From a virus (Duplodnaviria > Caudoviricetes): a DNA stretch of 64,000 nt. Every line of letters begins with the position of its first letter. The first letter of the stretch is position 1. The stretch covers positions 4,463 to 68,462 of IMG/VR virus record IMGVR_UViG_3300046517_001147; one strand, written 5' to 3'. The translations under genes were made by a program, and so were the position numbers. Below, piece after piece: positions 1-64,000 of this stretch. A model generated the notes under the pieces. That model was not told the origin of the DNA. It worked only from the letters and a program-made list of their open reading frames with translations, and searched no databases.

Positions 1-666
1 GGGATTGGCACAGGCACAGGCACTCTTTCTCTCAATCCTACGAGCATCGCCTTTGGTAACCAGGACAGCGGAACGTCCAGCAATCCGCGCTCGGTCATCT
101 TGACCAATACCGGAACCTTGACGCTGACAATTTCGAGCATTGCCTTGACCGGAACGAACGCAAATCAGTTCTCGATCGATACCAATACCTGTGGCGCGAC
201 TTTGGCGGTTTCAGCTTCCTGCTCATGGAATGTGGTGTTCTCGCCTAACTTGGTGCAAAGCAATACGGCCAGCGTAACGATAACCAGCACCGCGACGAGC
301 AGTCCAGACAATATCCCGCTGACTGGAACGGGCAGGAGTCCTACGCCTCCGTCTACTCCGGCGCCGGCTATTGTGATTGTGCGCGCCTTCCCGACCGGAA
401 GCGTACTGGTGGCAGAGAATGTAGGAGTCACGCCAAAGAACTTTCAAGTGTCCTCAACTGGTTGCTCTCAGGATGGAGTCAATTTCCAGAATCCATGCCG
501 GTTCGCGATTAGTTGCGGAAACTGCGGAAGACAAACCACGGCCCGATTTAACGGAACGGCGGTAAGCCAGTCTTTTTCCAGGGGAACGGTTACAGTCAGT
601 GTGCCGATCACTCTTTTCACCATGCCGGCACTGCCGACTGAATATCAAATCTCGCTGCTGAATTGA
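1..666 (+). CDS. 3' end (5'-truncated) of a fibre/adhesin-like protein with an ASPM-SPD-2-Hydin / choice-of-anchor-D Ig-like domain
   Basis: Frame 1 is open from base 1 (GIGTGTGTLSLNPTSIAFGNQDSGTSSNPRSVILTNTGTLTLTISSIALTG...CGATLAVSASC.W.VVFSP), the typical pattern of this domain. A Pro-rich linker and a Cys-containing C-terminal domain follow. Confidence 0.75.
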   Translation, partial: GIGTGTGTLSLNPTSIAFGNQDSGTSSNPRSVILTNTGTLTLTISSIALTGTNANQFSIDTNTCGATLAVSASCSWNVVFSPNLVQSNTASVTITSTATSSPDNIPLTGTGRSPTPPSTPAPAIVIVRAFPTGSVLVAENVGVTPKNFQVSSTGCSQDGVNFQNPCRFAISCGNCGRQTTARFNGTAVSQSFSRGTVTVSVPITLFTMPALPTEYQISLLN

Positions 667-672
667 GGATGA

Positions 673-1041
673 ATGGACGCCAACATTGTAATGACGCAAG
701 TGACCATGAGTACTTTGTTTGCCGGTGCTCTAGCATTTGCAAAATCAAAAGCATGGGTTCCTTTCTTTAACAAACATTCAGCCACGATCAACCACGTATT
801 TCTGGGAGTGACTTCTCTAGGCTCGGCTCTGGGTATTCACGCGCTCTGGAATGGAACGGACCATTCTCTGCTCATTGTCGGATTGTCTCCGTTGACAATC
901 GCGCACGGCATTTGGGAGTGGACAAAGCAGTGGTGTCTGCAATACTTGGTTCAACGCGGTGCGTTCGGTCCGGTTTCCATCCCTGGCGATGCTCCGGCCG
1001 TTCCTTCTACTCCGGTAAAGGCGGGAGAGACGAAGGACTGA
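673..1041 (+). CDS. membrane protein, holin candidate
   Basis: 122 aa with 2-3 hydrophobic segments and a charged C-terminus; at the end of the late operon facing the endolysin. Confidence 0.5.
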   Translation: MDANIVMTQVTMSTLFAGALAFAKSKAWVPFFNKHSATINHVFLGVTSLGSALGIHALWNGTDHSLLIVGLSPLTIAHGIWEWTKQWCLQYLVQRGAFGPVSIPGDAPAVPSTPVKAGETKD

Positions 1042-1568: not shown

Positions 1569-2011
1569 AGCTTAGCGTACCGTTCTCTATGACGTTGGGC
1601 GTCACATGCCCTACATCGGCGTATCCAGTACGTTAGCCCGTTCCGTACTACGCTGTATCTATGCGTATTCTCTGCCGTGAACTGATGCCCTCTTTTACAC
1701 TGCGTTTGAGCTCTCTTGCGAAGAATGTCTTTTCTGTGACCTTTACTGATCGCGTCTCGGTTGTTGTCCAACGCAGTTCCAAGAAATAAATGATCGGGAT
1801 TGAAACAGCGCTTGTCGTCACAGGTATGGCAGACGTACCGCTTGTCCCGCAGTTGCATGCCAAGGAAAAGATGTGCCGATAGCCTGGAAACAGTAACGTG
1901 TGTCCCATTGAATTTTGTTCTTGGTCTGTGGGAACCTGGTCGCAACCAAATCCAACATCCGTATTCGGATAAGACGGCTCTTTTTTTAAGAGTTTCCTGC
2001 GTGTGGCTCAT
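1565..2011 (-). CDS. HNH homing-type endonuclease
   Basis: GCWIW, VCHTCDDKRCFNPDHLFLGTALDNNRD (HNH_3 motif) and a C-terminal CKRGH...CRAC zinc ribbon. Confidence 0.9.
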   Translation of the reverse strand: MSHTQETLKKRAVLSEYGCWIWLRPGSHRPRTKFNGTHVTVSRLSAHLFLGMQLRDKRYVCHTCDDKRCFNPDHLFLGTALDNNRDAISKGHRKDILRKRAQTQCKRGHQFTAENTHRYSVVRNGLTYWIRRCRACDAQRHRERYAKL

Positions 2012-2429
2012 ATCTGTAGAACCTCAGTCTACCTACGTTCAATGTGTTTTGAAAGTCGGTTTCCTTTCCCCAAGCCTTCGGAAAAGACATACTAGTATCA
2101 TGATAAAAATTGGCGCCGTCGGTGTTGTCCGGCTCATCTCCTACCAAGACAGCCGAAGCCGCTGACAAACAATCTATCCAAGCGGGAGTTGCTTCATCTT
2201 CCGGCCACACTGCGGAGTTAGGATCGTTAGGATTAAAAGAAGAAAACTGAAATGGCTTGAGGACAACGCTCGCAACGTCATGGCCCCACCAACCACCTTG
2301 TGTTGCTCGGTTCTTGATGACATGACACACAGCGCGTTTGCCGTAGAGCGTTTCTCCGCGTGCTTCGCGATAACAGCACAAGGCCATTAGAGCAACATCG
2401 GAAAGCTCTCCGTAGGGTTGGGATTCCAT
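1986..2429 (-). CDS. endolysin, SleB/Hydrolase_2 cell-wall hydrolase
   Basis: ALCCYREARGE (catalytic Glu), AVCHVIKNR, VVLKPFQFSSFN, DNTDGANFYH; ATG 2429 with GGAGG. Confidence 0.9.
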   Translation of the reverse strand: MESQPYGELSDVALMALCCYREARGETLYGKRAVCHVIKNRATQGGWWGHDVASVVLKPFQFSSFNPNDPNSAVWPEDEATPAWIDCLSAASAVLVGDEPDNTDGANFYHDTSMSFPKAWGKETDFQNTLNVGRLRFYRYEPHAGNS

Positions 2430-2445
2430 ACACCCTCCTTCCAAT

Positions 2446-32539: not shown

Positions 32540-33361
32540 ATGCCAAGCATCCCGCAACTCGGTTTTCCGGTCATGGACGAAGTGATGCAACTGGTCCGTT
32601 CGCTGGTCAACGATACTTTTCCTGGGATTTTGGGAGCGCAAGGCAGAATCTTCACCAATAACGCGCAATTCACTATTCCGCTGTTTAATTCGGCTTACCG
32701 CAAACTGCAACGCAAGCTGCGAACCGAAGGCGCAACATTCCCAATCAAGGATAACGTCCAACTGCTGAATCTGACTCCGGTCATCGCGCAAAATACCAAC
32801 GTACAGACCTACGTCGATTTTAACGGCTACTTCGACGGTACGACCATGCACGACACTCCGAAGCTGCCTAGTGATCTTCTGCAGCCGTATGTCGTCGAGG
32901 AGCAAACGGTAGGCACTGGATTCCCGTTTGTTCCGATGGCTCAACCGGCCGAAGGGCTCCCGTCGGTGCTACAAGGCTCCATGCTAGAAATGTGGGAATG
33001 GCGGAACTACAAGATTTACATGGTCGGCTCGATCGTTACCAAGAATCTTCGTATCCGCTATCAGTATTCGAATGTGCCGCTCAACGTTCCTGCAGCCGAT
33101 TTTGACGTGACTTCGGTTCCGATAATCGATTGTCAGGACGCTCTGGCGAACTACATTGCCGCGATGTTTGGAAGGGCGCGCGGAGCCAATCCTCAAGCGG
33201 TCGCGGCGCTCGAAGCTGCCGGCGATGACGCTATGAACGATATGGCTTTTGAGTATGTTCGCCGCGCTCAAACGGTCACTTACCGTCGTCCGGCTTACGG
33301 TAGCGGCGGCTCAAACGATGGCGGCAATGGAACGCTTGGCCAGACCGGATGGGGCGCTTAA
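32540..33361 (+). CDS. head-to-tail adaptor-like protein
   Basis: VRSLVND...FNSAYRKLQRKL...LPSDLL..; position after the head genes. Confidence 0.6.
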   Translation: MPSIPQLGFPVMDEVMQLVRSLVNDTFPGILGAQGRIFTNNAQFTIPLFNSAYRKLQRKLRTEGATFPIKDNVQLLNLTPVIAQNTNVQTYVDFNGYFDGTTMHDTPKLPSDLLQPYVVEEQTVGTGFPFVPMAQPAEGLPSVLQGSMLEMWEWRNYKIYMVGSIVTKNLRIRYQYSNVPLNVPAADFDVTSVPIIDCQDALANYIAAMFGRARGANPQAVAALEAAGDDAMNDMAFEYVRRAQTVTYRRPAYGSGGSNDGGNGTLGQTGWGA

Positions 33362-34365
33362 TGCCGACTTACTACAGATTCGATGGCGTGGTGCGTAGTC
33401 CGCAAGGCGAAGCGGTTCCCGGCGTCCTGGTCTATGTGTGCACGCAGCCGGCGACTACGAGTACTATTCCGCCTTCGCCGCTGGCAACGATCTATGCCGA
33501 TTCAGTTGGAACGGCGCTTGCCAATCCGGTTGTCGTCGATGGCAATGGAAACTTCTTTTTCTATGCGGCGACCGGAACGTACACGATCCTTTATTTCGAT
33601 CCGAACGGCCGGGTGCAAACTACCGTCTTTCCCGATCAGCTTATAGTCACTCCCGGCGCGGGAACGGTTACCAGTATCGCTCTGACCATGCCGGCGGAGT
33701 TTAGCGTTGCTGGCTCTCCGGTTGCTACCAATGGCGTTTTCGCAGTTAGCAAAAACAATCAGAATGCTGGCACAGTTTATGCCGGTCCTGCTTCCGGTCC
33801 TGCCGCGGCGCCAACGTTTCAATCTCTGGCCACGCTTGCGGCCGCTCTTGGACTTGGTACGGGCACGGTAACCAGCGTTAATGCTTCGATTACCGGAAGC
33901 ACTTTATTGTCTCTATCGGTAAGCGGAAATCCGATCGTCACTAGCGGGACGCTCGTTTTTACGGTCAACTTCGCGAATCAAGCGGCTAACACTTTCTTGC
34001 GTGGACCATCATCAGGAGGAACTGGTCCGATTGTAGCCGGTCCAATCGTTCCAAAAGATTTACCGGGACTGGTTTCTGTAGCTTTTTCAGCGACTCCGAC
34101 TTTTGATGCCAGCGCGGGAAACAGCTTTGCAATGACGCTTACCGGGAACGTGACCTCCGGCACGATTACCAACGCTACGGCGGGACAAACAATTACTTTC
34201 ATCATTACGCAGGATGGGACAGGCGGATGGACGTTTGCATTCCCCTCCAATGTTAAAGGTGAATCGAATATCGGCGCTGACGCTGCTTCGGTCAGTGTCC
34301 AGAGTTTCATCTATACCGGAAGTCTGTGGCGTGCCACTGGCCCCGGCTCGGTGAATGCTACGTAG
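33361..34365 (+). CDS. tail fibre / structural protein
   Basis: N-terminal anchor-like domain (ATIYAD..G....NPVVVDGNGNFFFYA); two GTVTS repeats; C-terminal ITQDGTGGWTFAFP domain. Confidence 0.7.
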   Translation: MPTYYRFDGVVRSPQGEAVPGVLVYVCTQPATTSTIPPSPLATIYADSVGTALANPVVVDGNGNFFFYAATGTYTILYFDPNGRVQTTVFPDQLIVTPGAGTVTSIALTMPAEFSVAGSPVATNGVFAVSKNNQNAGTVYAGPASGPAAAPTFQSLATLAAALGLGTGTVTSVNASITGSTLLSLSVSGNPIVTSGTLVFTVNFANQAANTFLRGPSSGGTGPIVAGPIVPKDLPGLVSVAFSATPTFDASAGNSFAMTLTGNVTSGTITNATAGQTITFIITQDGTGGWTFAFPSNVKGESNIGADAASVSVQSFIYTGSLWRATGPGSVNAT

Positions 34366-51386: not shown

Positions 51387-51937
51387 ACCTTGAACGCGCA
51401 GAGCAGGTAACCGGATGGATGAGCCGCCCCGAAATGGAATGGCTGGCAGAGCAAGCCAAGAATGGCCTGGTCGTCGAGATTGGCTCTTGGATGGGCCGCA
51501 CGACGCGCGCCATGGCCGACAACAAGCGGAGCGGGAATATCTTTGCCGTGGATACCTGGAAGGGCAGTGAAGAGAACCAGGACTTTCTAAAGGACAAGCC
51601 GGAAGATTACCTCTTCCAAGAGTTCTGCAAGAACCTGGCGGACCACATAGCAAGCGATGTAGTGACTCCCTTGCGGATGGATTCGATCGGTGCGGCTTAC
51701 CACTTTGCGCGCCTTGGAACACAGTTCCAGTTTGTCTTTATCGACGCGGCGCATGACTACGATTCGGTGAAGGCCGATATTCTGGCTTGGCGGCCGCTGG
51801 TGGCGCGGGGCGGGACTCTCGCCGGTCACGATTACGATTGGGGCTATCCTGGCGTGGTGCATGCCGTCCGCGAGCTAATTTCAGAAACACCTAATCAAGC
51901 TGCCGGCGGTTCTTCCATCTGGTACACGCAAATATGA
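51380..51937 (+). CDS. class I SAM methyltransferase (Methyltransf_24-like)
   Basis: VVEIGSWMGRTT, AVDTW, FVFIDAAHDYDSV, GGTLAGHDY. Confidence 0.9.
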   Translation: MVNLERAEQVTGWMSRPEMEWLAEQAKNGLVVEIGSWMGRTTRAMADNKRSGNIFAVDTWKGSEENQDFLKDKPEDYLFQEFCKNLADHIASDVVTPLRMDSIGAAYHFARLGTQFQFVFIDAAHDYDSVKADILAWRPLVARGGTLAGHDYDWGYPGVVHAVRELISETPNQAAGGSSIWYTQI

Positions 51938-52740
51938 CCAGGATAAATCGCATGGTTGACGGAGTGATTGTCGGGGATGAGATTGGAAGGTACGAAGCCG
52001 GAAACAAGTTTCGGCCGGTCGAAACGATCGATTTCGTAGAACAAGCCATTAACGACCGCTGGAACATCCGCATTCCCAGATGTATTGCCGAATATCACGG
52101 CTGGTGGGATACCTGGGAAAAAGAACGGCATCTTTCTATGGCCAAGCATCTCAAGCCGGGAATGTCGTTTTTCGATGTGGGAACGTGCGACGGTTGGGAA
52201 GCTGTAGTGTATTCCCAGATGATTGGTGGCGCCAAGAAAATGATGTTGATCGAACCTTCGGTAGTGATGTGGCCGAATATAAAACTCATGTGGGAGAAAA
52301 ACAGGCTGGCCAAGCCACTAGCTACTTATTGCGGTTTCGCGTCGGATGTGGACAGTTCCGATAGAAGCTCAGTGAACCATAGCCGCTGGCCAAGAGAAGC
52401 GCGTGGAGATTTTATGAAGGGCAACGCTTTCATGCTCATGGAACGGAATGAGCATGCCGCGATACCGCGCAGGAAACTAGACACATTGGCTTCGCAGACT
52501 TTTGTTCCCGACGCGATAAGCATTGATGTGGAGGGAGCGGAATTGCTGGTATTGCGGGGAGCGCGGAAAATTCTGGAGAAAAAACATCCTTTGGTCTGGG
52601 CGTCGATTCATCCTGAGTTTATCAAGAGGTTTGGACACACTCCGGATATGCTGCATGAGTTTATGACTGACTGTGGATACTCAGGCGAATATCTTGGGAA
52701 CGATCACGAAGATCACTATTTCTTTAAGGCAAAAAGATGA
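51934..52740 (+). CDS. FkbM-family methyltransferase
   Basis: FFDVGTCDG, IEP, ISIDVEGAELLVLRGA. Confidence 0.85.
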   Translation: MTRINRMVDGVIVGDEIGRYEAGNKFRPVETIDFVEQAINDRWNIRIPRCIAEYHGWWDTWEKERHLSMAKHLKPGMSFFDVGTCDGWEAVVYSQMIGGAKKMMLIEPSVVMWPNIKLMWEKNRLAKPLATYCGFASDVDSSDRSSVNHSRWPREARGDFMKGNAFMLMERNEHAAIPRRKLDTLASQTFVPDAISIDVEGAELLVLRGARKILEKKHPLVWASIHPEFIKRFGHTPDMLHEFMTDCGYSGEYLGNDHEDHYFFKAKR

Positions 52741-53828
52741 ACTGGCCTAGCGTCTCGATTGCTTTCCCTTGCTGGCACCGCGGAGCGCTGCTTCGGAACA
52801 CTCTTGAAAGCATCCGCAAGCAGAACTATCCCGGTGAATTGGAATTGATCGTAGTGGAAGAGGACGACGACGGTCTGACAGAAAACTTGGCAACGGAGTT
52901 CGGAGCGCGGTATATACGCAATCCGCGGCTAGAGGCTTTCCCGGTTTTTCAGTCCATTACAAAGCTCTGGAACATGTGTTTGCACGCGACCACCAATGAG
53001 ATTGTGATTCTGCAGTGTGCCGAAGTGCTGCACAAGAACGACGCGATAATCCCGCTGGTCGTTCGCGTTCTGGGTAACCGCAAAGTTTTGGCAACTCCAC
53101 TGATCGAAGACTTGAACCAGGATGGAACGTTCGCCGGCTGGTACAACCACCCGACCGAAGGCTCACGGCCGGGATGGGTTTCTGGCGCTGGACCACACTG
53201 CTTCCGCCGTGAGGAGATGCTAGAAGTCGGCGGCTATGAGGAGTTGTTCTACGGCTACGGTGGAGAGGACAACTATCTTTTCTTCTTACTCAAGAAAAAT
53301 GGATGGAGCGTTGAATACGTGGAATCTGCTATTTGCGCCCACCAATGGCATGAACGGACCAAGTACGAGCCAACGACCGGCTACGCTAACCGTTCGCTAA
53401 TCAACATTCTGACTATGGAAGTGGACAGAGGGACGCGCGCGCCGGTTGCCAACAAAGAACCTCTCGATTTGCGCGAGAGTCCCAATGTTTCGGAACTTAA
53501 CAATGTTCTGCTACGCACCAACTATTTTCCGATGAGCGACACTTTTTCAAACTGGCGTGCGGAGTGGTTGCAGATTGGCACGGAGACTCATCCCGACAAC
53601 CTGTTTGTGGTGCAACGGATTGTGGCCAATGAAGGATTGGGGAAGGTCTCGGAGATTGGGGAAGCGCTTACCGAATGCGCTTGGGCCATTCTGCGGGAGA
53701 CAGAGGCTAGGTTTGTGGCTGCCCTGGCTTACGGGAACTGGAAAACCAGAGCGTCTTTCTGCGCTGACATTCACGCAACTTGGGCTGCGCTTTCTCTCGA
53801 CAAAGCCAAACAGCTAATGGAGAAATGA
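52737..53828 (+). CDS. GT2/GT7-like glycosyltransferase
   Basis: VSIAFPCWHRGALLRNTLESI, VGGYEELFYGYGGED, HQWH. Confidence 0.85.
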   Translation: MNWPSVSIAFPCWHRGALLRNTLESIRKQNYPGELELIVVEEDDDGLTENLATEFGARYIRNPRLEAFPVFQSITKLWNMCLHATTNEIVILQCAEVLHKNDAIIPLVVRVLGNRKVLATPLIEDLNQDGTFAGWYNHPTEGSRPGWVSGAGPHCFRREEMLEVGGYEELFYGYGGEDNYLFFLLKKNGWSVEYVESAICAHQWHERTKYEPTTGYANRSLINILTMEVDRGTRAPVANKEPLDLRESPNVSELNNVLLRTNYFPMSDTFSNWRAEWLQIGTETHPDNLFVVQRIVANEGLGKVSEIGEALTECAWAILRETEARFVAALAYGNWKTRASFCADIHATWAALSLDKAKQLMEK

Positions 53829-54463
53829 TGAGGGCCGATTCTCCGGATGTGTCGATGTGGAAAGTGATAATCAATGAGCAAAACTACACTCCGAAGTCTG
53901 GTGATAGAGTCTTAGACCTGGGCGCGCACCACGGATTCTTTTCCATGTATTGCTCGGCGCGCGGAGCGCTGGTACGAGCCTTCGAGCCCGACCCGGACAA
54001 CTTCATTCAACTGGAACAAAAGATTGCCATTGCCAAGAATATGGACGCTCCTCCGTTTACCGCAATCCAGGCGGCGGTATGGAGCGAATCGGGGGAAAAA
54101 CTGTTGTGGCGAGACCCGGCCGACTCCGGCGCCAATTCCATGCTTCGGGCTATGTCCGATTTTTCGATCATGGTAAAGACGGTCAGTTTGTCGGAAGCCT
54201 TGTGCGGCAACCGATGGGACTGCGTAAAGGTGGACGTAGAGGGCGCGGAAGCGCAAATCTTCCTGACCGCAAAAGCAGAGAGTTACCGGCAGATCGCCTA
54301 CCTGACAATGGAGTTGCACAACGACGTGTTGACCCAAGAGCAAAACCGGGCGCTGGTGATGAGAATGCGAAAAGAGTTTCCGCGGGTAGTCGAAACGAAA
54401 CAATACTTCGAAGGGCTGCCAACGGAGTTTGCTTGCAAAGTGTTTTGTTGGGGGAGCGTATGA
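53825..54463 (+). CDS. FkbM-family methyltransferase
   Basis: VLDLGAHHGFFS, AFEPDPDNF, VKVDVEGAE, MELH. Confidence 0.9.
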   Translation: MMRADSPDVSMWKVIINEQNYTPKSGDRVLDLGAHHGFFSMYCSARGALVRAFEPDPDNFIQLEQKIAIAKNMDAPPFTAIQAAVWSESGEKLLWRDPADSGANSMLRAMSDFSIMVKTVSLSEALCGNRWDCVKVDVEGAEAQIFLTAKAESYRQIAYLTMELHNDVLTQEQNRALVMRMRKEFPRVVETKQYFEGLPTEFACKVFCWGSV

Positions 54464-55416
54464 AAGAAGTGGTGATTGTGCCGACGTTCCGTCGCGAAGA
54501 GTTGCTTCATTGCTGTTTGAGGCGGATTCGTTCTTTCGAAGGCGATATTCCCATTCGCGTTTTTCCGGATCGCGGCACTTCCTACGGTCACTTGGTTACC
54601 ACGATTTGCGATGAATTTGAGGCGGAGCAGCACATAGTTCCTATACATGATTCCTATGGAAACACGGCCAATGTGATGGATGCCTACTTCTGGGCCTACA
54701 ATAATGGCTACGATCGCGTCTTTTTTGTCGAGTCTGACGTGATGGTGCATTCTGACTTTTTCTCCTGGCATCGCGAGATGCAGGAAGAGTTTCCAGACAT
54801 TTTCTGTTCGATGGGCTGGATATTCAACCGCGAAGCACCGATCACCGATGACCTTCTTTTTCAACCCTGGTACTACAGTATCGGGACGTGCTTTTCGCGG
54901 GAGAAACTGAAACTGATCGCCAAGCATGCGACTGAACGGTATTACTCGGATATGGTTGGATACCTGGAACGGAATTTCGAGATGCCACGCAACTTCTCTG
55001 GCGTTCACTGGGAACAAGACGGGCTGATTCAACGAGTGCTCAATCAAGACAAGAGCCAGACGGTAGCGCCGGGAATTGCCAAGTGCTCGCACGTTGGAGC
55101 GGTCAGAAGTTATGGCGACGGCACGCAGCGGAGCTACGAAGAGTTTTTCGGCCTTAAAGATGTTCCATTTCTCGACCGGGTAAAGAAAGTTGAGGAGTTC
55201 ATTGCCGACCCCTACGCTCGGATGGCTGTATTCGGACGGGCTCTGGTCGAGCGGGAAGTGGGCAGAGTGCTCCCGAAACAGGAATTTAGCTATAGGCTTA
55301 TTTTTCCCGGCGGTTGGGAAAGCACCTTCAAATCTGAACTGAAACTGGCGGCTTTACCAAAGCGAAGGATTAATTCAGTCCCTATGACGGATGAAGCTAA
55401 AATCGTGCTAGAGTAG
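54460..55416 (+). CDS. GT-A fold glycosyltransferase
   Basis: VVIVPTFRREELL, VFFVESDVMVHSDFF, EQDGLI, HVG. Confidence 0.75.
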   Translation: MKEVVIVPTFRREELLHCCLRRIRSFEGDIPIRVFPDRGTSYGHLVTTICDEFEAEQHIVPIHDSYGNTANVMDAYFWAYNNGYDRVFFVESDVMVHSDFFSWHREMQEEFPDIFCSMGWIFNREAPITDDLLFQPWYYSIGTCFSREKLKLIAKHATERYYSDMVGYLERNFEMPRNFSGVHWEQDGLIQRVLNQDKSQTVAPGIAKCSHVGAVRSYGDGTQRSYEEFFGLKDVPFLDRVKKVEEFIADPYARMAVFGRALVEREVGRVLPKQEFSYRLIFPGGWESTFKSELKLAALPKRRINSVPMTDEAKIVLE

Positions 55417-55465: not shown

Positions 55466-56152
55466 ATGCCGACGTACCCCACAGGAAGCGGCGGAAACAC
55501 TCCCGTAGCACTCCTTCAACCTGGAGTCCCAGGTTACGCTTTCGGTTCGCTGAACAAACGTTTTCCGACTACCCTCCTGCAGATCACCAACGTCGCGCTT
55601 ACCAGCAACGTCGCCACGGTCACTGTGACCATACGCAGAGGCGCCGTTCCTATCGCTGGCAATCTGATTTCAATTACTGGGACAGCCGGAGCGAGCGGCG
55701 CATTCAACGTTTCAAACATTGCAATTTCAACAGTCTCGATCGATTCCGTAACTGGAATAGGAACGATCACTTTCCCGCTTACCCATGCGGATGTGGTGAG
55801 CGCTGCGGATGCTGGACAGGGCTACGTACCGCCGGCCGAAGTCGCGGAAACCCTGGCAGTCCAGAAAAGCCAAGCCTTTGCAATTCAGGATTCGATCGGG
55901 AGAGGTTACGGAATCACTTGGGCGTATACCTTGCCTTCGGCTCCGTCAACAATTTCGATTCAGCTTGAGGGCGCGGTAAACAACAACGACGCTGAATACA
56001 CGGCTATCGGTTCTGCGGTCACCACGACGACCGGCTACAACGAGCAAATTGCCCAACTTCCTAACCTGGTGAATTTCGTTCGCCTGAGAGTTACCGCGAC
56101 GACCGGCGGAAGCGCTCCCACGATTATTGGGAAACTCACTCTGGGGAGCTAA
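55466..56152 (+). CDS. virion appendage adaptor-like protein, paralogue A
   Basis: Thr-rich beta protein; aligns end to end with 58811-59491. Confidence 0.65.
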   Translation: MPTYPTGSGGNTPVALLQPGVPGYAFGSLNKRFPTTLLQITNVALTSNVATVTVTIRRGAVPIAGNLISITGTAGASGAFNVSNIAISTVSIDSVTGIGTITFPLTHADVVSAADAGQGYVPPAEVAETLAVQKSQAFAIQDSIGRGYGITWAYTLPSAPSTISIQLEGAVNNNDAEYTAIGSAVTTTTGYNEQIAQLPNLVNFVRLRVTATTGGSAPTIIGKLTLGS

Positions 56153-58747
56153 ATGCCTCCAGTCATTACATCCGGTCCTACATACACAGTAACGGACACA
56201 ACCATAGTCGCTGTTTGGACTACGGACATTCCTGCAGATTCCAATATGACCGTTACCGGCGGGAGTTTTCCTAGCGGCAAGAATGCTGTCGATAACGGAC
56301 TCGCGGCAAACTCCACTTCGCACCAAGCTGTAGCGGCCGGCTTGGACGTTAACACGGTTTTTTCATGCGTCGTAACTTCTGGCGGTACTAGTTCATCTCC
56401 ACAGAATCAAACCACAGCCGTAGCGCATTCGACGACTCCCATAACGATTGCATTTTTCGGTGCCGCTACAGCCACTTCGCCTGACGGCGATATTCTCTAC
56501 AATTTTCTGTCCAACGATAATCTCACCTACATGACGCGGGATGACGCGAACACTCCCGGCACGAACGCCAATCAACAGATCGACAAAATTACCAACGAAT
56601 CGACTCTGGCTATCAGCCAAGTAAACGCGCTCACCGCCTACGGCGCCTTTAATACAACCAACGGAACGGATGGACCTGGCGGCATTGCGCTATCCAACAA
56701 ATTCAACGGTCTTTTCGGCATGGCCGGTTCGCTTTTTGGATTTACCGGGCGGCATCAAATCACTAGTGGGCCGGTTGTTCGCAAACAGTACTACGGCAAC
56801 GTGATCCGCTCCGATAACCACGGCGCTTCATGGAGCAACTTCAACAATCCTACGACGTTTAACGCTAATGGGATTCCCGCTTTTCCCAACAGCGGCGGCA
56901 ATTCAGTTGCTCCTTTTTTCTTTGGAGCCAATAGTAATTTTGGATGGGTTACTCCGGTTAGGTATGCCGCCGATGACGGGACTCTAGGCTACAACACACC
57001 CGGCAACGGCTTTGACGGAGGGAACGCTTATTGCTATTTCGCGATACTCGACGGAAACAACGACTCTGCCGACTACGCATACTTGGGGCGCATTCCGCGC
57101 ATTAGTCTGTTCGCGCTTGACTACACGGCGGAGCAGTTTTGGATTGGCCCTACTTCTCCAACCGCGGCCGATTTTGTCAATGATGCTAACTGGCAATCGG
57201 CTTCCACTGGGCTAACACAGATTTATGCGGCTGCTGGTAAAGTCGGATGGCCGGACATTTGTTTCATTCCGACGATCAATCGCTATTTGTTGTTCACTTC
57301 TTACCGTCCGGATACATCGGTTACTGGGAATACTGTCTGGCAAGTATTAGAAGGTCCGACACCTGCAGGTCCATGGACACTGATAGGACTAAAGACGAAT
57401 ACCACTACTGGTTATTATGCCCAGACCATCCTGCATCGCACGGCTTGCACCAACGTTTTGACCGACGGCATTGCGCTCACTGTGATTTATTCCGGCGACT
57501 TCCAAAACGCCTCTATGTACCATCCGACCTACAGCACGCTGACCTTGTCCACGCAGCCGCAAAATCCAGTAACTAATTTATTTGTCCAGGCAAAAGGCAG
57601 CACCACCGCGCTGACAGGTACTAATCCTACTTTTGCTTACAATTCTAATGTGACCAGCGGCGATCTTTTGGTTGCTGTCCTGCGCTATAACAGTTCTGGC
57701 GTCCCACGCCTAAGCTCAGTTACCAGCAACCGCACCACTGGAAACTGGACGGTCGTATACGATCAAAATGACGGCGGCGGAACACCTATTCAGGAAGCCT
57801 GGGCTTATGCCTGGGCTACTTCAACTGGCGCTTGCACCGTAACGTTTAACTTCGGCGCCTCAATCATTGGATTTGATGTATGCCTTTGTGAGTGGTCTGG
57901 CCCGACTGCGTTCCGTGTCAATGCTGGACTTAAGAATACGACTCAATCGACCAACATTGTCGGCAACACGCTTTCCTGTTATGCCGGAGATTTATTGATT
58001 GGCGTAATCGGACTGGGAAGCGCTGCCAACAATACTTTTACCGCAGCGAGCGGTTATGTGCTTCGGGCGCAAGGCAAGAACGGCGCTGTGAATTTTTGTG
58101 CGGTGCAGGATAAACTTACCGCAGCCTTGCAATTTGCTACCGCACAATTTGTAAGCAATTTTACTGACGGCTCAGTAAGAGCGATCCTAGACTTAGCTGC
58201 GTTCTATTCCCAAGGAATCATTTCAGGCAATGTCGGTGTGGCCGGTGCGACCGTGGCCTGGACTTCGGTAAGCTCCGGTTCCGGTTCAACCACTTCGGAC
58301 GGCTCCGGCAACTATTCCACGTCAAGTTTAGCTTCCGACGTTTACACGCTCACTCCTACAAAAACAGGCTATAGCTTCTCTCCGACCAGCGTCCAGCAAG
58401 TAATGGTTAGCGCCAACTTAACGGGCGTGAATTTCACGGCGACACACTTGCCTGTGTCCACCCCTTCGATTTCACCCAATGGAGGGAATTTTGATTCTCC
58501 TCAAACGGTAACCGTGAGCGATACGGATTCCGGGCTCGCTGGTTTTGCGATGTACTACACGACGGATGGGACTACGCCTACCACTGGTTCCACGCTTTAC
58601 ACTGCACCGATCGCGGTAAGTACTTCCTTGACTTTAAAAGTCTTGGCCGTCGCTACGGGCTTTCTCAATAGTGCGGTTGCTTCGGCTACTTTCAACGTTG
58701 TTCGTGGTGGCGGCGGTCTAGGATACAGATTTACTTATGGCTTTTGA
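56153..58747 (+). CDS. multidomain receptor-binding / glycosidase-like protein
   Basis: FN3-like N-terminus; beta-propeller-like region with Asp-box RSDNHGASWS; beta-sandwich; CHB_HEX_C-like YYTTDGTTPT domain. Confidence 0.7.
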   Translation: MPPVITSGPTYTVTDTTIVAVWTTDIPADSNMTVTGGSFPSGKNAVDNGLAANSTSHQAVAAGLDVNTVFSCVVTSGGTSSSPQNQTTAVAHSTTPITIAFFGAATATSPDGDILYNFLSNDNLTYMTRDDANTPGTNANQQIDKITNESTLAISQVNALTAYGAFNTTNGTDGPGGIALSNKFNGLFGMAGSLFGFTGRHQITSGPVVRKQYYGNVIRSDNHGASWSNFNNPTTFNANGIPAFPNSGGNSVAPFFFGANSNFGWVTPVRYAADDGTLGYNTPGNGFDGGNAYCYFAILDGNNDSADYAYLGRIPRISLFALDYTAEQFWIGPTSPTAADFVNDANWQSASTGLTQIYAAAGKVGWPDICFIPTINRYLLFTSYRPDTSVTGNTVWQVLEGPTPAGPWTLIGLKTNTTTGYYAQTILHRTACTNVLTDGIALTVIYSGDFQNASMYHPTYSTLTLSTQPQNPVTNLFVQAKGSTTALTGTNPTFAYNSNVTSGDLLVAVLRYNSSGVPRLSSVTSNRTTGNWTVVYDQNDGGGTPIQEAWAYAWATSTGACTVTFNFGASIIGFDVCLCEWSGPTAFRVNAGLKNTTQSTNIVGNTLSCYAGDLLIGVIGLGSAANNTFTAASGYVLRAQGKNGAVNFCAVQDKLTAALQFATAQFVSNFTDGSVRAILDLAAFYSQGIISGNVGVAGATVAWTSVSSGSGSTTSDGSGNYSTSSLASDVYTLTPTKTGYSFSPTSVQQVMVSANLTGVNFTATHLPVSTPSISPNGGNFDSPQTVTVSDTDSGLAGFAMYYTTDGTTPTTGSTLYTAPIAVSTSLTLKVLAVATGFLNSAVASATFNVVRGGGGLGYRFTYGF

Positions 58748-58810: not shown

Positions 58811-59491
58811 ATGCCGCCATACGAATTTTCGCCCGGTGTGAATGAACAACCGAAACTGCTGCAGCCTGGAGTTACCGGCTACGCTTTCGGCTCTTTCGAT
58901 TCGAAGTTTCCCACCACACTTCTAAAGATTCTTACCGTCGCCATTTCCAGCAACGTCGCGACGATCACGGCAACCATCCGTGAAGGCAAAGTTCCGACGG
59001 TTGGAAGTCTGATTACCATTCGGGGAACGACAACTGCCGGCGGCTCTTTCAACGTCCTCAATGTCGCGATTGCCACGGTTCTCTTTGACTCCGTGACCGG
59101 AATCGGTGTGATTACTTTTTCTCTTGTCGATGCCGATGTGGGAGCGGTAGCCGATACGGGAATGGGCTATGTGCCCATGCCTGAAATTGGAGAGGCTTGC
59201 GCTAACGGCGCGAGCGTAGCCTTTGCTATTCAGGACATTGCCGGCCATAACGATAACGGTCTCACCGTCCAGTGGAGTACTTCCTACCCGTCTTCTCCGG
59301 CAATTATGACTGCCATCCTGCAAGGCGCTGACTTCGACGCGGACGATCAGTACATAGAAATCGATCGAAGCACTAGCCTACCGTCGGATAGCCGTTCCAG
59401 CACGCAGACCCGATTCCGGTTTCTTCGCGTGTTGTGGCAAGACTTGGCGGGTGGAACGAATCCTACAGGTATTGTGCGAATCAACATTTGA
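58811..59491 (+). CDS. virion appendage adaptor-like protein, paralogue B
   Basis: LLQPGVTGYAFGSFDSKFPTTLL versus LLQPGVPGYAFGSLNKRFPTTLL in paralogue A. Confidence 0.65.
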   Translation: MPPYEFSPGVNEQPKLLQPGVTGYAFGSFDSKFPTTLLKILTVAISSNVATITATIREGKVPTVGSLITIRGTTTAGGSFNVLNVAIATVLFDSVTGIGVITFSLVDADVGAVADTGMGYVPMPEIGEACANGASVAFAIQDIAGHNDNGLTVQWSTSYPSSPAIMTAILQGADFDADDQYIEIDRSTSLPSDSRSSTQTRFRFLRVLWQDLAGGTNPTGIVRINI

Positions 59492-59499
59492 GGCTGACG

Positions 59500-61941
59500 A
59501 TGAAAAAGACTTTTCTCATATTGTTGTTCTTGCTTGGTGCGCTTCCCGCATTCGGCCAATACCGTCAACCGATCGCTACACACACCAATGTTGACGGAAA
59601 GATTGATTACATAGACTTCCGCGTGTCCGATCTTCTAAAGCCGGAAGCATCTCCACCGTCTCCGGCCGTTTCCATCCAGAAAGCGGGAATTTTCGATTTT
59701 CAATGTACCGCTACGCCTACTAATCCTCCGACCGGCAATGATCGCTTTTACTGCGACTCTGGAACGGGGAATATGGCTTGCCTGACTTCAAGTGGAGCGA
59801 ATTGTCTGCCTGGTGGCGGTGGCGGTGGCGGCTCTGGAACGGTAACCAGTGTCGGCCTTGCTGCTCCTGGCGGAATGGTGGTTTCAGGCTCTCCGGTGAT
59901 TGGCGCTGGAACGCTTACTTGGGGTATGCCGGCGGGATGGAGTCTGGGCGACTTGCTGGTTGGGAATGGAGCTAATTCAGTCGCGCGCCTTGCTGCTCCG
60001 ACGACTCCCGACGGTGTTCCGGAAACGCTAATTTCTACTCCTTCGGGCGGCGCTGTGGCGCCGGCCTACGCTCTAACCGGATTGGCTGGCCGGGTAGTTT
60101 CTGGAACGACCGACACGATTCTGGCAACTGACCGTTCACCAAAGACAGTTGAGTACACAAGCAATGCTGCGGTAGCGGTTACTGTGCCCGACCCTGGGAG
60201 TACTGGTTTCGGAACGAATCCGGCTTTCGTGACGATCGCAGAAGGCTCTGGAGTAGTAACCTTCACTCCACAAACGAGCGCGGTGATTACTTGGTGCAAT
60301 GGCGCGGTATGCTTCCTGGGCCAAACATCTCTAACCCTGTTGACCGGGCAAATAGGCAACTGGTCTTCTCCTGATGGCGGGAATTGGCTGGTGCGCGTAA
60401 CTTCGACCGGCGCTGGTGGTGGCTCGCCAATCTTCAATAATCAGTGTCTTTCTGGCTGCGGAGTGGTTTGGACCGGCCTTCTCAATTTCACGGTATCCGC
60501 TTCAACGTACAACATCGCAAGTTCTCTGTATTCGTCTCCGCAAACGAATCTGACTCTATCCGCGGCTGACCCTTCTAACCCGCGCATTGACGTGATCGCG
60601 GTGAACGCTTCTGGCGCGGCGGTAGTGATTACCGGAACGCCGGCTGGCAGTCCTTCGGCTCCTACCGTTGATCCTCAAAGTCAGTTGGCTCTTACTTTTG
60701 TGACCGTTCCTGCTGGTTCGACGACTCCAACGCTTTCGAGCATCACCGTGTATGACGAAAACCTGACTCCGCCAACGGAGTGGACTTGCACGCCGACCGC
60801 AAATTTCAACTGCAACTCGACAAACAACCCTTTCCACTTGACGAAGGATATTGAGGCAACCACGGCGGCCGCCGGGAACAATGTGGCGCTAGTAAACAGC
60901 GGAACCGTGAACCTGGCGACGTACAGCACTCTCACTTTCAACATCCGCAACAAGGCAAACTGGCCTAGTCAAAAGTCTCTTTCAATTTGTTTCCTAAACA
61001 GCGCAACGATAGTCGGAACATGCGTAGGATTTAAGAATGGGGTTTTTGGATTCAACCAAACCAATATCACCGGCTATCAACAAATTGTGATTCCGCTTTC
61101 TACTTTTGGGCTTGGCTCGACCGTTGTCGATCGGTTGCGCTTTCAGGTTACCGGCGGCGGCGGTGCAATCGGATTTTATCTCGACTGGATACAGTTGCAA
61201 AACACACCGACCGGCGGCGGCGGCAATTCCAACACTTTCCAGTTGCAGGTAAACAGCGTCAACACGGCTCTTACTGCGAACCTGAAAGACAATGCCAGTG
61301 TAACTTTCACGCGCACTCCGACCGCGGCCGGCATAGATGACATTACCGCTACGGCAGTTGGCGCTCCTCCCTCTGGCGCGGCCGGTGGAGCATTATCCGG
61401 AACCTACCCTAATCCCGCGTTGGCCAACGGAACGTCCTGCACCAATCAAGTGGTTACCGCAATCAATCAGACTACGGCGGCGGGAACCTGTTCTAGCGTA
61501 ACGAACGCGATGTTAAGCAATTCTTCGACGACCGTTGGTGGCGTGGCTTGCACACTCGGTTCTTCCTGCTCGCCGCACGTCAATCATGGGCTCTCATTCT
61601 CGATCGGTGACCCTTCCGGCTCGGCTCTTACAGCCGGCAGCACGACTACTGATTACTTGACGATTCCGTTTGCTTGCACCATCAATGCCTATAACCTGCT
61701 AATCGATGGCGGCACGATCACCGTCAAATTCTGGAAAATCGCGACCGGAACGGCAATTCCTACAAGCTCTAACTCGATCAATACCAGCGGGGTGGGTATT
61801 TCGACCGGCACGGCGATTCATTCCACGACACTTTCTGACTTCACAACGACGACTGTCACAGCCAACGACATTATGGCCATGAGCGTAACGGTGACCGCGA
61901 CGGCAAAATTCGTGAATGGAGTGTTGAGTTGCCAAGAATAA
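59500..61941 (+). CDS. fibre-like protein with Sec signal peptide
   Basis: MKKTFLILLFLLGALPAFG-Q; GTVTSVGL..P....SGSPV repeat; NPRIDVI; GGALSGTYPNP; many closely spaced Cys pairs. Confidence 0.75.
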   Translation: MKKTFLILLFLLGALPAFGQYRQPIATHTNVDGKIDYIDFRVSDLLKPEASPPSPAVSIQKAGIFDFQCTATPTNPPTGNDRFYCDSGTGNMACLTSSGANCLPGGGGGGGSGTVTSVGLAAPGGMVVSGSPVIGAGTLTWGMPAGWSLGDLLVGNGANSVARLAAPTTPDGVPETLISTPSGGAVAPAYALTGLAGRVVSGTTDTILATDRSPKTVEYTSNAAVAVTVPDPGSTGFGTNPAFVTIAEGSGVVTFTPQTSAVITWCNGAVCFLGQTSLTLLTGQIGNWSSPDGGNWLVRVTSTGAGGGSPIFNNQCLSGCGVVWTGLLNFTVSASTYNIASSLYSSPQTNLTLSAADPSNPRIDVIAVNASGAAVVITGTPAGSPSAPTVDPQSQLALTFVTVPAGSTTPTLSSITVYDENLTPPTEWTCTPTANFNCNSTNNPFHLTKDIEATTAAAGNNVALVNSGTVNLATYSTLTFNIRNKANWPSQKSLSICFLNSATIVGTCVGFKNGVFGFNQTNITGYQQIVIPLSTFGLGSTVVDRLRFQVTGGGGAIGFYLDWIQLQNTPTGGGGNSNTFQLQVNSVNTALTANLKDNASVTFTRTPTAAGIDDITATAVGAPPSGAAGGALSGTYPNPALANGTSCTNQVVTAINQTTAAGTCSSVTNAMLSNSSTTVGGVACTLGSSCSPHVNHGLSFSIGDPSGSALTAGSTTTDYLTIPFACTINAYNLLIDGGTITVKFWKIATGTAIPTSSNSINTSGVGISTGTAIHSTTLSDFTTTTVTANDIMAMSVTVTATAKFVNGVLSCQE

Positions 61942-63569
61942 TCTTGCTCTTTTTGGCCTTGCTCTCTCCCTGTGCGGCGCTCGCGCAGATGCCTTATTTG
62001 CAGATTGTGCAATCGCAACAGGTTTCAGCGAATGCGGCCAGTGTTGCATGTCCGGCATTTCTGCGAACTACTACCGTTGGAAACTATTTGGTGATTAGTA
62101 GCGCGTGGTTTGGCACAAACAATTTGCCTTCGGTAAGCGACACGGCGGGACACACATTCACCAATAAATACACGGATGTTGTGAATGCCAGCACGGTCAA
62201 ATTGGGTCTTTCCACGACCACCATAACCTCTGCTTCCGCTGATGCGGTAACCGTAGCTGTGACTAGCGGCTCTTTTATGTCGGTCGTCTGCATGGAAGTC
62301 TTGCCCAATTTTTCCCTTACGTTGGATGGGACTCAACCTGCGGCCAATGCTTTTTCGGGTACGCCCTCCACCGCTACAAGCGCCTCCATCACCACCACTT
62401 TCAATAATGATTTTGCTTTCTGTATCGCCAGCGGCTTCAACAGTGCCGGACTGTTCTGGGAATCGTCTCCGTATAAATTGGCCGGGGAAGCGAATGGCGC
62501 AGATTCGGGAGCTATGTCGTTTGCGTGGACTGGAACGGTAGGTGCTAAGACTTGTACGTTTAATCAAAAAAATAATTCATCTGGCGCTATAGCGATTGTG
62601 GCCTTTCAACCGCTTACAGGTTCCACGATCACCATTCAGAGCCCCACGGCGCTCCCCGATGCGGCTACTTCGGTGGCCTATCAATATACGGAATTGTCAA
62701 CAGGCGGCACGGCCGCGCTCACATGGTCGATTAGCGTAGGAGCGTTGCCTACCGGACTATCCATAAATTCGAGCACTGGCGCAATCACCGGAACGCCCAC
62801 GGTCAGCAACAATTACAGTTTTACAATCCAGGCGACGGATGGAACGCACACGTCCACCAAAGCCAGCACAATGGCGGTAACTACGGGTTTCAACACGCCT
62901 ACCGTGGTCCAGTCGAAGAGTGATGGAAGCAATTCCAATTCCACTACGCTTACATTTACTTCCAACGTCACTGCCGGGGACACAATCGTGGTTATTGGCG
63001 GGAAAGGCACCACTCACACTCTCGGCCAATACTGTACCGATAGCGTAGCTACTCCATTTCAACTTTTAGAGAGTGCCGATGGCCCTGCCGATCACCTTGC
63101 CTCGGAGATGATTACGCAGCAGTATTTCGTAGGCGTGGTTCCTTCCAGTGGAGCGGATACGGTAACTTGTTCGAGCCTTGGTGGTGTCTCAGCTATCTAT
63201 GAAGTTTCAAACGTTCAACTATTTGGCAGTGAAAACGTTTCAGTGCAAGCGCGAAGCAATTCCGGTTCGCCAATCACTTCTACTTCTCTAACCACGATTG
63301 TTCCCAATGAGATTTTATTCACTTCCGCTTCGTTCTGGACTACCACCACTTCGGCCACACTCAGCGCTCCGTTCACTGGCGTAAACGCGACTTTTAACAA
63401 TCCATCTGGCTACGATGCGGTGACCACGGTCACTGGATACACTTCCAGTTTCACTTTCAGCGGGAACACGGATACGGGATGGATGATTCCATTAGTGGGG
63501 ATTCGACCTGGCAGTAATGGCATTGTAACGCCTCCAAGTACCGGCAGGCATAAAGGACAAATCCTGTGA
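61929..63569 (+). CDS. secreted adhesin/fibre-like protein with putative Ig (He_PIG) domain
   Basis: MPRIILLFLALLSPCAALA-Q; WSISVGALPTGLSINSSTGAITGTPT; two flanking beta-sandwich modules. Confidence 0.75.
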   Translation: MPRIILLFLALLSPCAALAQMPYLQIVQSQQVSANAASVACPAFLRTTTVGNYLVISSAWFGTNNLPSVSDTAGHTFTNKYTDVVNASTVKLGLSTTTITSASADAVTVAVTSGSFMSVVCMEVLPNFSLTLDGTQPAANAFSGTPSTATSASITTTFNNDFAFCIASGFNSAGLFWESSPYKLAGEANGADSGAMSFAWTGTVGAKTCTFNQKNNSSGAIAIVAFQPLTGSTITIQSPTALPDAATSVAYQYTELSTGGTAALTWSISVGALPTGLSINSSTGAITGTPTVSNNYSFTIQATDGTHTSTKASTMAVTTGFNTPTVVQSKSDGSNSNSTTLTFTSNVTAGDTIVVIGGKGTTHTLGQYCTDSVATPFQLLESADGPADHLASEMITQQYFVGVVPSSGADTVTCSSLGGVSAIYEVSNVQLFGSENVSVQARSNSGSPITSTSLTTIVPNEILFTSASFWTTTTSATLSAPFTGVNATFNNPSGYDAVTTVTGYTSSFTFSGNTDTGWMIPLVGIRPGSNGIVTPPSTGRHKGQIL

Positions 63570-64000
63570 AGATGCTCTCTCGATGGATTCTCCTTACCGG
63601 CGTCCTGCTCGGCGCCGTGCTCACTTTCATGCTTCTCTGGAAGCACCAACAGCCAAAGCATCCGGTTGCTAGAACCATAGCGAAGGGTAAATTCATAGCG
63701 AAGTTGGGTTCTGGCTGGTTTGTGCGCTCGTCAACAGCTTGTCCTACAAATGGAAATGGTACTTCTTCCAGTTGCGCGGCTTCTCCTGGCGGGGCGGGAG
63801 CCTGGTCGGGATTCGCCAATATCGGTTGGGGTTCGATTCATGCCGGCGACACATTGTCAATGCAAGCCGGAGACACCTACGCGGAGCAGTTGACGATCGG
63901 CGCATCCGGAACCAGCGGAAGCCCTGTCACCATCACGGTAAATGGCGTCGGGACGGCCATTATAGACGGCGGCAACGCTCGTACTGGATTTAGTTTCAAC
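63566..64000 (+). CDS. 5' part (3'-truncated) of an N-terminally anchored or secreted beta-helix (pectin-lyase-like, depolymerase) protein
   Basis: Not in the ORF track. GTGA-coupled; MKMLSRWILLTGVLLGAVLTFMLLW...NGNGT...GAW...AGDTL...GDTYAEQLTIGASGTSGSPVTI...AIIDGG; open to the window end. Confidence 0.7.
   Translation, partial: MKMLSRWILLTGVLLGAVLTFMLLWKHQQPKHPVARTIAKGKFIAKLGSGWFVRSSTACPTNGNGTSSSCAASPGGAGAWSGFANIGWGSIHAGDTLSMQAGDTYAEQLTIGASGTSGSPVTITVNGVGTAIIDGGNARTGFSFN

Follow-up and report, generated by a model that had tools for sequence, protein, structure and literature searches.

Every part of a tailed phage virion is taken to be built in the cytoplasm, and it is routine to annotate fibre-like proteins as tail fibres on the strength of their sequence. 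Some phage-encoded proteins end in the host envelope or on the host surface, such as Lom and Bor of phage lambda, Llp of T5, and PblA and PblB of Streptococcus mitis phage SM1, and some of these are encoded among tail-fibre genes. Lom, Bor and Llp are small proteins without fibre-like character, whereas PblA and PblB are fibre-like, are not known to carry signals and reach the surface by way of holin and lysin action. The subject of the present analysis is a run of three consecutive genes (genes 1 to 3) at the end of the late operon of a tailed phage, located in a stretch of 64,000 nucleotides (the window) of the virus record IMGVR_UViG_3300046517_001147. Their products are fibre-like proteins with predicted export signals and many cysteine pairs. 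The export of these proteins and their oxidative folding outside the cytoplasm are well supported by sequence comparison, and an accessory function outside the virion, directed at polysaccharides of the host envelope or slime, is the reading to which we tentatively lean.

The nearest described things are exported fibre-like or tailspike-like proteins of bacteria, together with Sec-exported endolysins and the signal-bearing open reading frames (ORFs) of Porphyromonas gingivalis phages. The MAT fibres of Bdellovibrio bacteriovorus, as presented in part of the report on them, resemble the proteins studied here in being tail-fibre-like, in having a signal, a conserved beta-rich domain that follows it immediately and C-terminal tips that vary, and in acting at the cell surface; unlike them, they are encoded by a predatory bacterium, and some carry an S74 chaperone-protease (PMC10769870). 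The parallel to gene 1 is one of layout, taken from descriptions. WceF of Pantoea stewartii is likewise exported, and its phage tailspike fold acts on the cell's own exopolysaccharide, but in the relevant passages of the source it is a bacterial protein with a Tat signal and a trimeric right-handed beta-helix of shown activity (PMC7949094). No beta-helix was confirmed in the products of genes 1 to 3. Lys44 and the signal-anchor-release (SAR) endolysins are, as here, late phage proteins placed outside the cytoplasm by the host Sec system before lysis; unlike here, the passages that treat them describe small peptidoglycan hydrolases, with no fibre, carbohydrate-binding module (CBM) or immunoglobulin (Ig)-like make-up (PMC6116005). 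The P. gingivalis phage ORFs share Sec signals whose cleavage would expose Gln, but they belong to temperate Bacteroidota phages, and the passages concerned mention neither a fibre-like character nor an arrangement in a late module of several genes (PMC10367356). Target proteins of diversity-generating retroelements in phages lack signals, unlike the bacterial ones, according to part of a survey (PMC6199706), and the passages searched in the account of the first cultured Acidobacteriota viruses mention glycosyltransferases and no fibres or signals (PMC11924767). The open full-text literature searched yielded no description of tailed phages with a conserved module of several genes for Sec-exported, disulfide-paired fibre-like proteins.

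Export signals and paired cysteines of genes 1 to 3

The three genes are arranged as follows.

59500..61941, plus strand: gene 1, 813 amino acids, ATG start with GAGG 6 nucleotides upstream
61929..63569, plus strand: gene 2, 546 amino acids, TTG start with GGAG 7 nucleotides upstream
63566..64000, plus strand: 5' part of gene 3, 145 of 1,811 amino acids, GTG start with AGGA 8 nucleotides upstream
1..666, plus strand: 3' end of gene 3, continuing from window position 64000 across the circular junction

The ATG of gene 1 at 59500 lies 9 nucleotides past the preceding stop codon, gene 2 overlaps gene 1 by 13 nucleotides, and gene 3 begins in a GTGA overlap of 4 nucleotides with gene 2, crosses the 127-bp terminal repeat and reaches its full length at window position 666. 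A sequence-only reading of this DNA had proposed that three consecutive genes begin with export signals, and the N-termini were found as it gave them: MKKTFLILLFLLGALPAFG↓Q in gene 1, MPRIILLFLALLSPCAALA↓Q in gene 2 (the arrow marks the predicted cleavage site) and MKMLSRWILLTGVLLGAVLTFMLLW in gene 3, each start being provided with a Shine-Dalgarno site. Judged by eye and with a heuristic, genes 1 and 2 have the features of Sec signals cut by signal peptidase I, namely a basic n-region, an uncharged hydrophobic h-region of about 8-15 residues and small residues at -3 and -1, and the signals, which occupy residues 1-19 in both proteins (nucleotides 59500-59556 in gene 1), are predicted to be of the cleavable type. 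The N-termini of genes 1 to 3 are the most hydrophobic among the 73 called ORFs. The heuristic flags seven of these ORFs: genes 1 to 3, two more plausible exported proteins and two likely false positives.

Gene 3 starts with a putative membrane anchor of the type II signal-anchor kind, WILLTGVLLGAVLTFMLLW, followed by a basic stretch. The 19-residue hydrophobic span has no small -3/-1 pair after it, and basic residues are more numerous after the span than before it. Among the relatives of gene 3, either an anchor (loci L003 and L004) or a cleavable-type signal (L005 and L007) is present. The cleavable-type signals before homologous domains in L005 and L007, together with the 36 paired cysteines of gene 3 itself, favour a predicted location of the bulk of this protein outside the membrane.

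The signals are conserved beyond this phage. A word-indexed search gave 55 homologues of gene 1, and the pattern M-K/R-hydrophobic-AxA↓Q is kept in 18/18 of the closest ones with a complete N-terminus. The mature start, Q-H/Y-R-x-P..., is conserved from exactly AxA↓Q onward, and the signal sequence itself drifts. Seven related viral loci were inspected (L003, L004, L005, L007, L008, L009 and L010; L006 and L011 were left out), and in all of them two to six consecutive ORFs at the equivalent position bear signals by the same heuristic: the homologue and one to five adjoining large ORFs, always past the structural genes and before lysis-type genes. Six such ORFs stand in a row in L010, and signal-bearing orthologues of gene 2 are present in L007 and L008. 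Phages of this group would thus devote two to six consecutive late genes to exported fibre-like proteins.

The hydrophobic N-termini might instead be miscalled starts or structural helices, an explanation to which we give hardly any weight. It could draw on the fact that the signals were called only with a home-made heuristic and on an in-frame ATG at codon 21 of gene 2; however, each of the upstream starts has a Shine-Dalgarno site, conservation of the mature sequence sets in exactly past AxA↓Q, the signals persist through sequence drift, and cysteine pairs track them. The concern raised earlier, that the true starts might lie downstream of the hydrophobic segments, is therefore judged improbable.

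The many short cysteine pairs that had been noticed in the gene 1 product are borne out, its 18 cysteines forming nine short-range pairs in sequence. The mature product of gene 2 holds 6, likewise in sequential pairs, and gene 3 has 36, which make 18 sequential pairs, mostly one per Ig-like repeat. Cysteine content alone was rejected as a diagnostic feature, since the glycosyltransferase cluster of this phage (1.85%) comes close to the exported proteins (1.93%), the structural block having 0.59%. At E ≤0.001, 4,457 cluster representatives were obtained in an exhaustive phmmer search (986 at ≤1e-30), and nearly all of the matches run through the core domain of gene 1, residues ~314-568. Of 190 family members gathered from the word-indexed and phmmer searches, 102 have signal-like N-termini, 77 are without and 11 are fragments, so roughly half of the proteins sampled from this fibre-like family (4,457 clusters in all) have export signals and signal-linked cysteines. 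In profile-aligned cores, the Cys430/438 pair occurs in 49 of 91 signal-bearing against 7 of 76 signal-less members (odds ratio 11.5, Fisher p 4e-10, a value that overstates independence, as the test counts related sequences), and several of the seven signal-less exceptions resemble miscalled starts. Moreover, among members with any core cysteine, an even number is found in 66/74 signal-bearing and 15/37 signal-less proteins, and in 19 sequences C430/C438 are invariant and C497/C508 nearly so. The small-x-small↓Q pattern after a hydrophobic run shows the same division (85 of 102 signal-bearing proteins, against 15 of 77 signal-less ones at comparable positions). Because the cysteine pairs track the signals across the family, they are good indirect evidence of folding in an oxidising compartment. 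The earlier proposal of export for oxidative folding therefore holds up, whereas its second part, attachment of the exported subunits to the virion at or after lysis through the 226-231-amino-acid paralogues encoded nearby, found no direct support and stands level with the alternative named there, decoration of the infected cell surface.

Proposed accessory function and possible receptor binding

Behind its signal, gene 1 has a Cys-rich N-domain (residues 20-102), which homologue searches found solely behind signals, a GTVTS...GSP motif region (106-168), beta-rich domains, a conserved core (314-567) that contains a CBM-like jelly roll, and, at residues 693-813, a C-terminal domain that can be swapped. 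The protein is modular: the GTVTS...GSP region is repeated in some relatives, and the C-terminal domain is of at least three exchangeable types. Its AlphaFold2 model has a mean predicted local distance difference test score (pLDDT) of 56.6 overall, with values of 70-88 in the core. In Foldseek comparisons the core matched CBM8 (7t7y; target template modelling score, TM, 0.77; root-mean-square deviation, rmsd, 3.1 over 157 columns) and CBM29 (target TM 0.60-0.63). As modelled, the core is a carbohydrate-binding-module-like jelly roll, and sugar binding is predicted. The matches in the ESM Atlas are unnamed viral clusters only, and a sequence search of the PDB with gene 1 found nothing. Gene 2 contains a He_PIG Ig-like domain (236-317). 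Gene 3 contains ten choice-of-anchor D domains (NF012200, 560.1 bits against an NCBIfam cut-off of 45), with Ig-like Pfam matches to ASH, HYDIN-like and Cep192_D4; its first ~600 residues match nothing in Pfam at E 5, and residues 146-602 nothing among PDB sequences. A likeness of this region to the beginning of secreted right-handed beta-helix enzymes was considered and discarded as evidence.

The neighbouring late genes that enter the argument are the following; after the sugar cluster the order is 228-amino-acid protein, 864-amino-acid protein, 226-231-amino-acid paralogue, genes 1 to 3 and holin candidate.

33349..34365, plus strand: 338-amino-acid signal-less protein in the structural block, two copies of the GTVTS...GSP motif
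47031-55416, plus strand: 8-kb glycosyltransferase/epimerase/methyltransferase block within the late operon, directly upstream of the exported module
55466..56152, plus strand: 228-amino-acid signal-less protein (A1), 46% identical to its paralogue A2
56153..58747, plus strand: 864-amino-acid glycosidase-like protein, signal-less in the window
58811..59491, plus strand: 226-amino-acid signal-less protein (A2, also given as 226-231 amino acids), paralogue of 55466-56152
673..1041, plus strand: 122-amino-acid protein with hydrophobic segments, last gene of the late operon, holin candidate by position and hydrophobicity only

That genes 1 to 3 encode accessory proteins, which stay outside the virion and act on polysaccharides of the host envelope or slime, is given somewhat less than an even chance. 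Genes 1 to 3 constitute a conserved module for predicted exported proteins that closes the late operon. Their products would be made late, moved by the host Sec system across the inner membrane or anchored in it, and folded with disulfides in the periplasm, and, being exported and folded there, they would have no part in the cytoplasmic assembly of virions. They would bind and, with the neighbouring enzyme, cut or mask envelope or slime polysaccharides of the host, working in late infection from the periplasm or the cell surface and, after lysis, in the surrounding matrix. Progeny would thereby escape without adhering to debris or to cells that are infected already. In this reading we infer which sugar is targeted, when and where the proteins act, and that they are absent from the virion.

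We lean to the accessory function because of the anchor on gene 3, the occurrence of the neighbouring enzyme in lipoprotein variants, the surface-protein-like make-up of the proteins and the presence of a homologue in an island without virion genes. The anchor of gene 3 is apparently uncleaved, which counts against an obligatory virion role. The predicted make-up, with a CBM-like jelly roll, He_PIG and choice-of-anchor D domains and an adjoining glycosidase-like protein and sugar cluster, is like that of surface proteins. The 864-amino-acid protein has an Fn3-like start (Fn3_assoc), a central region, for which relatives carry precomputed DUF4185 or arabinofuranosidase annotations, and then CarboxypepD_reg and CHB_HEX_C domains. 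Among its homologues 46 are signal-less (many start MPVISNL...), 28 have Sec-type and 3 canonical lipoprotein signals (FLAGC, FLSGC), and 8 are fragments; for those with the Fn3-type start the numbers are 25, 11, 3 and 5, respectively. In comparison with the nearest relative of this phage, G001 (locus L003), an 87-nucleotide indel is located just upstream of the window-type start (window 56153; L003 4576-4662). The extra stretch reads MRRLLWVAALFLNGC..., a lipoprotein signal, and holds a GGAG before the internal ATG. Very close phages therefore have this enzyme with or without a membrane-targeting signal, and since the GGAG is kept before the internal ATG, a single gene might yield the enzyme in an exported as well as a cytoplasmic form in phages of the L003 type. 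Such gain and loss of a signal fits a workplace that can be reached by export or by lysis, and it disagrees with a lipid-anchored protein as a component of the virion.

Several points weigh against the accessory function. The signals were called by eye and with a crude heuristic made for this analysis, and the association of cysteines with signals is counted over related sequences. A Sec signal by itself delivers a protein only to the periplasm in a two-membrane cell, and no outer-membrane or surface sorting family (PEP-CTERM, C-terminal domain of the type IX secretion system) was recognised in genes 1 to 3 at E 0.01. The proposed function and the ligand are predictions. The signal-less members of the family have N-termini of the ordinary fibre type, with collagen-like repeats and typical fibre motifs, and the position of genes 1 to 3 is the usual site of receptor-binding proteins. 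Moreover, in cultured phages the weak matches are annotated as tail fibre, receptor-binding, minor tail or virion structural proteins. These matches, 18 and mostly weak, were obtained with the core domain alone (Flavobacterium phage MaF61 ORF177 at E 7e-6, others at E 3e-3 to 0.9); a tblastn search of 50,697 phage records with the whole of gene 1 gave no match at E 1e-5. The core is homologous to fibre-annotated proteins and is common to signal-less proteins with fibre-type N-termini.

The exchange of sequence among close phages also belongs to these points. Most late proteins are 98-100% identical to those of G001, including gene 3 (99%) and the two small paralogues (97-100%). Gene 1, however, shows 82% identity over 91% of its length, with the C-terminal domain swapped, the 864-amino-acid protein shows 72%, and gene 2 is replaced outright, with no match in G001 or in the related genome G002. 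Such hot-spot exchange is typical of receptor-binding proteins, but it is also expected of any protein matching a variable surface sugar of the host. In a further related phage, G003, no large signal-less fibre candidate was found in this module.

Receptor-binding appendages that are exported, folded with disulfides in the periplasm and docked onto the finished virion as soon as the holin has opened the inner membrane, or following lysis, are a possible explanation of the same data, although on balance we hold it to be unlikely. It is kept in consideration because of the genomic position past the structural genes, the domain swapping, in which a conserved N-domain is combined with exchangeable C-terminal domains at a recombination hot spot of a backbone whose identity is 98-100% elsewhere, the fibre-type relatives, signal-less fibre-like proteins to which both the core and the C-terminal domains are homologous, and the lack of another obvious large fibre gene in the G003 module. 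It also agrees with a Foldseek comparison of the gene 1 model with viral predicted structures (BFVD), in which tail fibre and minor tail proteins came out on top with low TM. On the other hand, no tailed phage with exported fibres turned up in the open full-text literature searched, an anchor as on gene 3, or a lipoprotein signal as on variants of the neighbour, would keep proteins in membranes, and one homologue lies in an island without virion genes. Residues 1-310 of gene 1 match no Pfam, PHROG or NCBIfam family, so that no virion-attachment domain was recognised.

Two sets of signal-less proteins bear on the docking of such appendages. A GTVTS...GSP motif had been reported as common to gene 1 and the 33349 protein, and this similarity proved real but marginal: BLASTP gives 13/23 identities (E 0.002), and a motif profile finds two copies in the 33349 protein (independent E-values 0.0029 and 0.039) as the sole other match among 73 ORFs, with a whole-sequence E of 3.4. 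The 33349 protein has a weak PHROG 'tail fiber' match (E 0.0085) and is conserved at full length in the clade (87-88% identity in G001, 77% in G002, 63% in G003). The 226-228-amino-acid proteins always precede the signal-bearing genes in this clade, which would suit an adaptor for receptor-binding appendages. Their family is narrow, with 17 homologues of A2, all inside this phage group. The AlphaFold2 model of A2 (mean pLDDT 79) consists of a beta-barrel and a jelly roll. In structure it is matched best by XepA (Z 10.8) and YomS (Z 10.4), next by the BPP-1 (Z 9.3) and KHP40 (Z 8.6) cement proteins, followed by many TNF-like and CBM jelly rolls at Z 7-8, where the usual background also lies. 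XepA of PBSX and YomS of SPbeta (PDB 6i56, 6i5o) match the jelly-roll half with an rmsd of 2.0 over 92-93 residues; they are prophage proteins whose own function is unsettled, the identity is 6-10%, one domain is covered, and Z is little above the background. As far as the models go, these matches do not identify A2 as an adaptor. A complex prediction for the 226-amino-acid protein with gene 1 residues 20-110 gave no answer (score 0.00) and was used neither way.

Secreted auxiliary metabolic enzymes or binders, serving the host in feeding on plant or microbial polysaccharides, would account for the CBM-like fold and for the 864-amino-acid relatives annotated as arabinofuranosidase or DUF4185, and glycoside hydrolases are reported from soil viruses in part of a recent account (PMC11924767). 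This explanation is nevertheless a poor candidate, as no catalytic domain was recognised in genes 1 to 3 with Pfam or NCBIfam, the sequence features are of the fibre type with domain swapping, and the genes are expressed late, beside lysis genes.

Should genes 1 to 3 be accessory proteins, phages of this group would carry a sizeable secreted tool-kit directed against the host envelope or slime, which would change the reading of fibre and auxiliary glycosidase genes in soil viruses and offer a source of disulfide-stabilised sugar binders. Should they be receptor-binding proteins instead, an entire group of soil phages would carry out part of virion assembly outside the cytoplasm, a novelty among tailed phages.

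Host and chromosomal copies

Close cellular relatives, sought by a pattern scan of species-representative genomes, were found only in Acidobacteriota assemblies and in one short Paceibacterota-labelled contig. Of the Acidobacteriota matches, two loci belong to a single Bryobacterales genome and the remaining one to a Blastocatellia contig. They include the island without virion genes, and the phage itself encodes a further signal-bearing protein that bears on the host.

L012, 4748-12371: integrative island in a Bryobacterales chromosome, with integrase, DnaD/O-like replication initiator and few small ORFs
12222-12683 of the window, minus strand: 153-amino-acid ORF with Sec-type signal …ATAHA↓D and C-terminal PEP-CTERM-like motif …TTPEPSTIAFLFAGLVFAILWRKTT (Pfam 19.8 bits against a cut-off of 20.7)

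L012 carries as cargo a signal-bearing fibre-like homologue together with another ORF that bears a signal, and within 10 kb no gene for head, tail or terminase was found; the island could be a satellite-like element or carry defence or exclusion cargo. Another locus, L013, looks like a prophage stump, with a fibre-like ORF, a signal-bearing ORF matching a 'virion structural protein' PHROG, a ParB-methylase, a small-terminase-like ORF and a transposase. The homologues on both L012 and L013 have PHROG tail-fibre matches. At a prophage-like locus (L015), several signal-bearing ORFs lie past a tailspike-like gene. The idea that a conserved pair of fibre gene and gene 2 occurs in the bacterial islands was dropped, since by BLASTP gene 2 does not resemble the second ORF of either L012 or L013.

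The chromosomal copies speak for proteins that serve the infected or lysogenic cell on its surface, as adhesins or, in the manner of exclusion proteins, as receptor-masking lectins that block further phages. The combination of signal, conserved N-domain and variable tip parallels the MAT fibres as described in part of their report (PMC10769870); in the structural comparison a tip domain of Bd2133 is a middling match to the 226-amino-acid protein (Z 7.6-7.7). The P. gingivalis phage ORFs with a signal and Gln at +1 are read, in the passages that deal with them, as modifiers of the outer membrane (PMC10367356). Nevertheless, this role is rather improbable: neither an integrase nor a repressor was recognised in the phage genome, the genes are translationally coupled in the late operon and adjoin the holin candidate, and no outer-membrane sorting signal was found.

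The host is probably a two-membrane acidobacterium, living in soil, because of the Acidobacteriota relatives, the PEP-CTERM-like protein and Gln after the cleavage site. A phage-encoded exosortase substrate would be unusual, and it points to a slime-producing host. In a 400-kb sample of Bryobacterales genome (L036-L055), small-x-small↓Q is present in 15/38 signal- or anchor-like N-termini. Gln at +1 (the 'Q-rule') is described as Bacteroidetes-specific in part of the source (PMC5837995); given its frequency in 85/102 family members and in these 15/38 N-termini, the rule may extend to Acidobacteriota. A Bacteroidota host, suggested by Gln at +1, was rejected, since the Bryobacterales sample also has frequent Gln at this position, the closest cellular homologues are from Acidobacteriota and the phage encodes a PEP-CTERM-like protein.

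The late operon and other genome features

The window covers bases 4463-68462 of a 68,462-bp record, which has a 127-bp direct terminal repeat and a completeness estimate of 100% and is therefore the whole phage genome. The small and large terminase subunits are recognisable, and most structural proteins have no match among Pfam or PHROG families. The late operon runs on the plus strand from ~17989 to the window end and then over the circular junction to window position 1041, genes 1 to 3 being its final genes before the 122-amino-acid holin-like membrane protein. The latter has no Pfam match and is kept in G001 (100%) and G003 (64%). The opposite strand carries a candidate lysis gene close by.

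1986..2444, minus strand: endolysin candidate, Hydrolase_2 / SleB-like by family match

The sugar-modifying cluster at 47031-55416 encodes a two-domain GT1/GT4-type protein, an NAD epimerase/dehydratase, an RXYLT1-like protein, two methyltransferases and two GT2-like proteins; its substrate may be virion proteins, exported proteins or the host surface. Near the endolysin candidate, a 204-amino-acid ORF (3322-3936, minus strand) with the start MNRRTFTARISSLVLFLAAGGSSLLISGC, a twin-arginine-like motif and lipobox, has no family match and is kept in G001 and G002, and between the two lies a papain-family Peptidase_C1 protein (2511-3311, minus strand). An HNH endonuclease ORF (1565-2011, minus strand) overlaps the 3' end region of the endolysin gene and is absent from G001 and G002; therefore, it is probably a mobile homing endonuclease. 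Sequence searches of the PDB with a 1,762-amino-acid late protein and a 1,106-amino-acid protein found nothing. The former (34969-40257, plus strand), which has 13 cysteines and no match in Pfam, PHROGs or PDB sequences, is partly variable among close relatives, with 86% identity over 87% of its length to G001.

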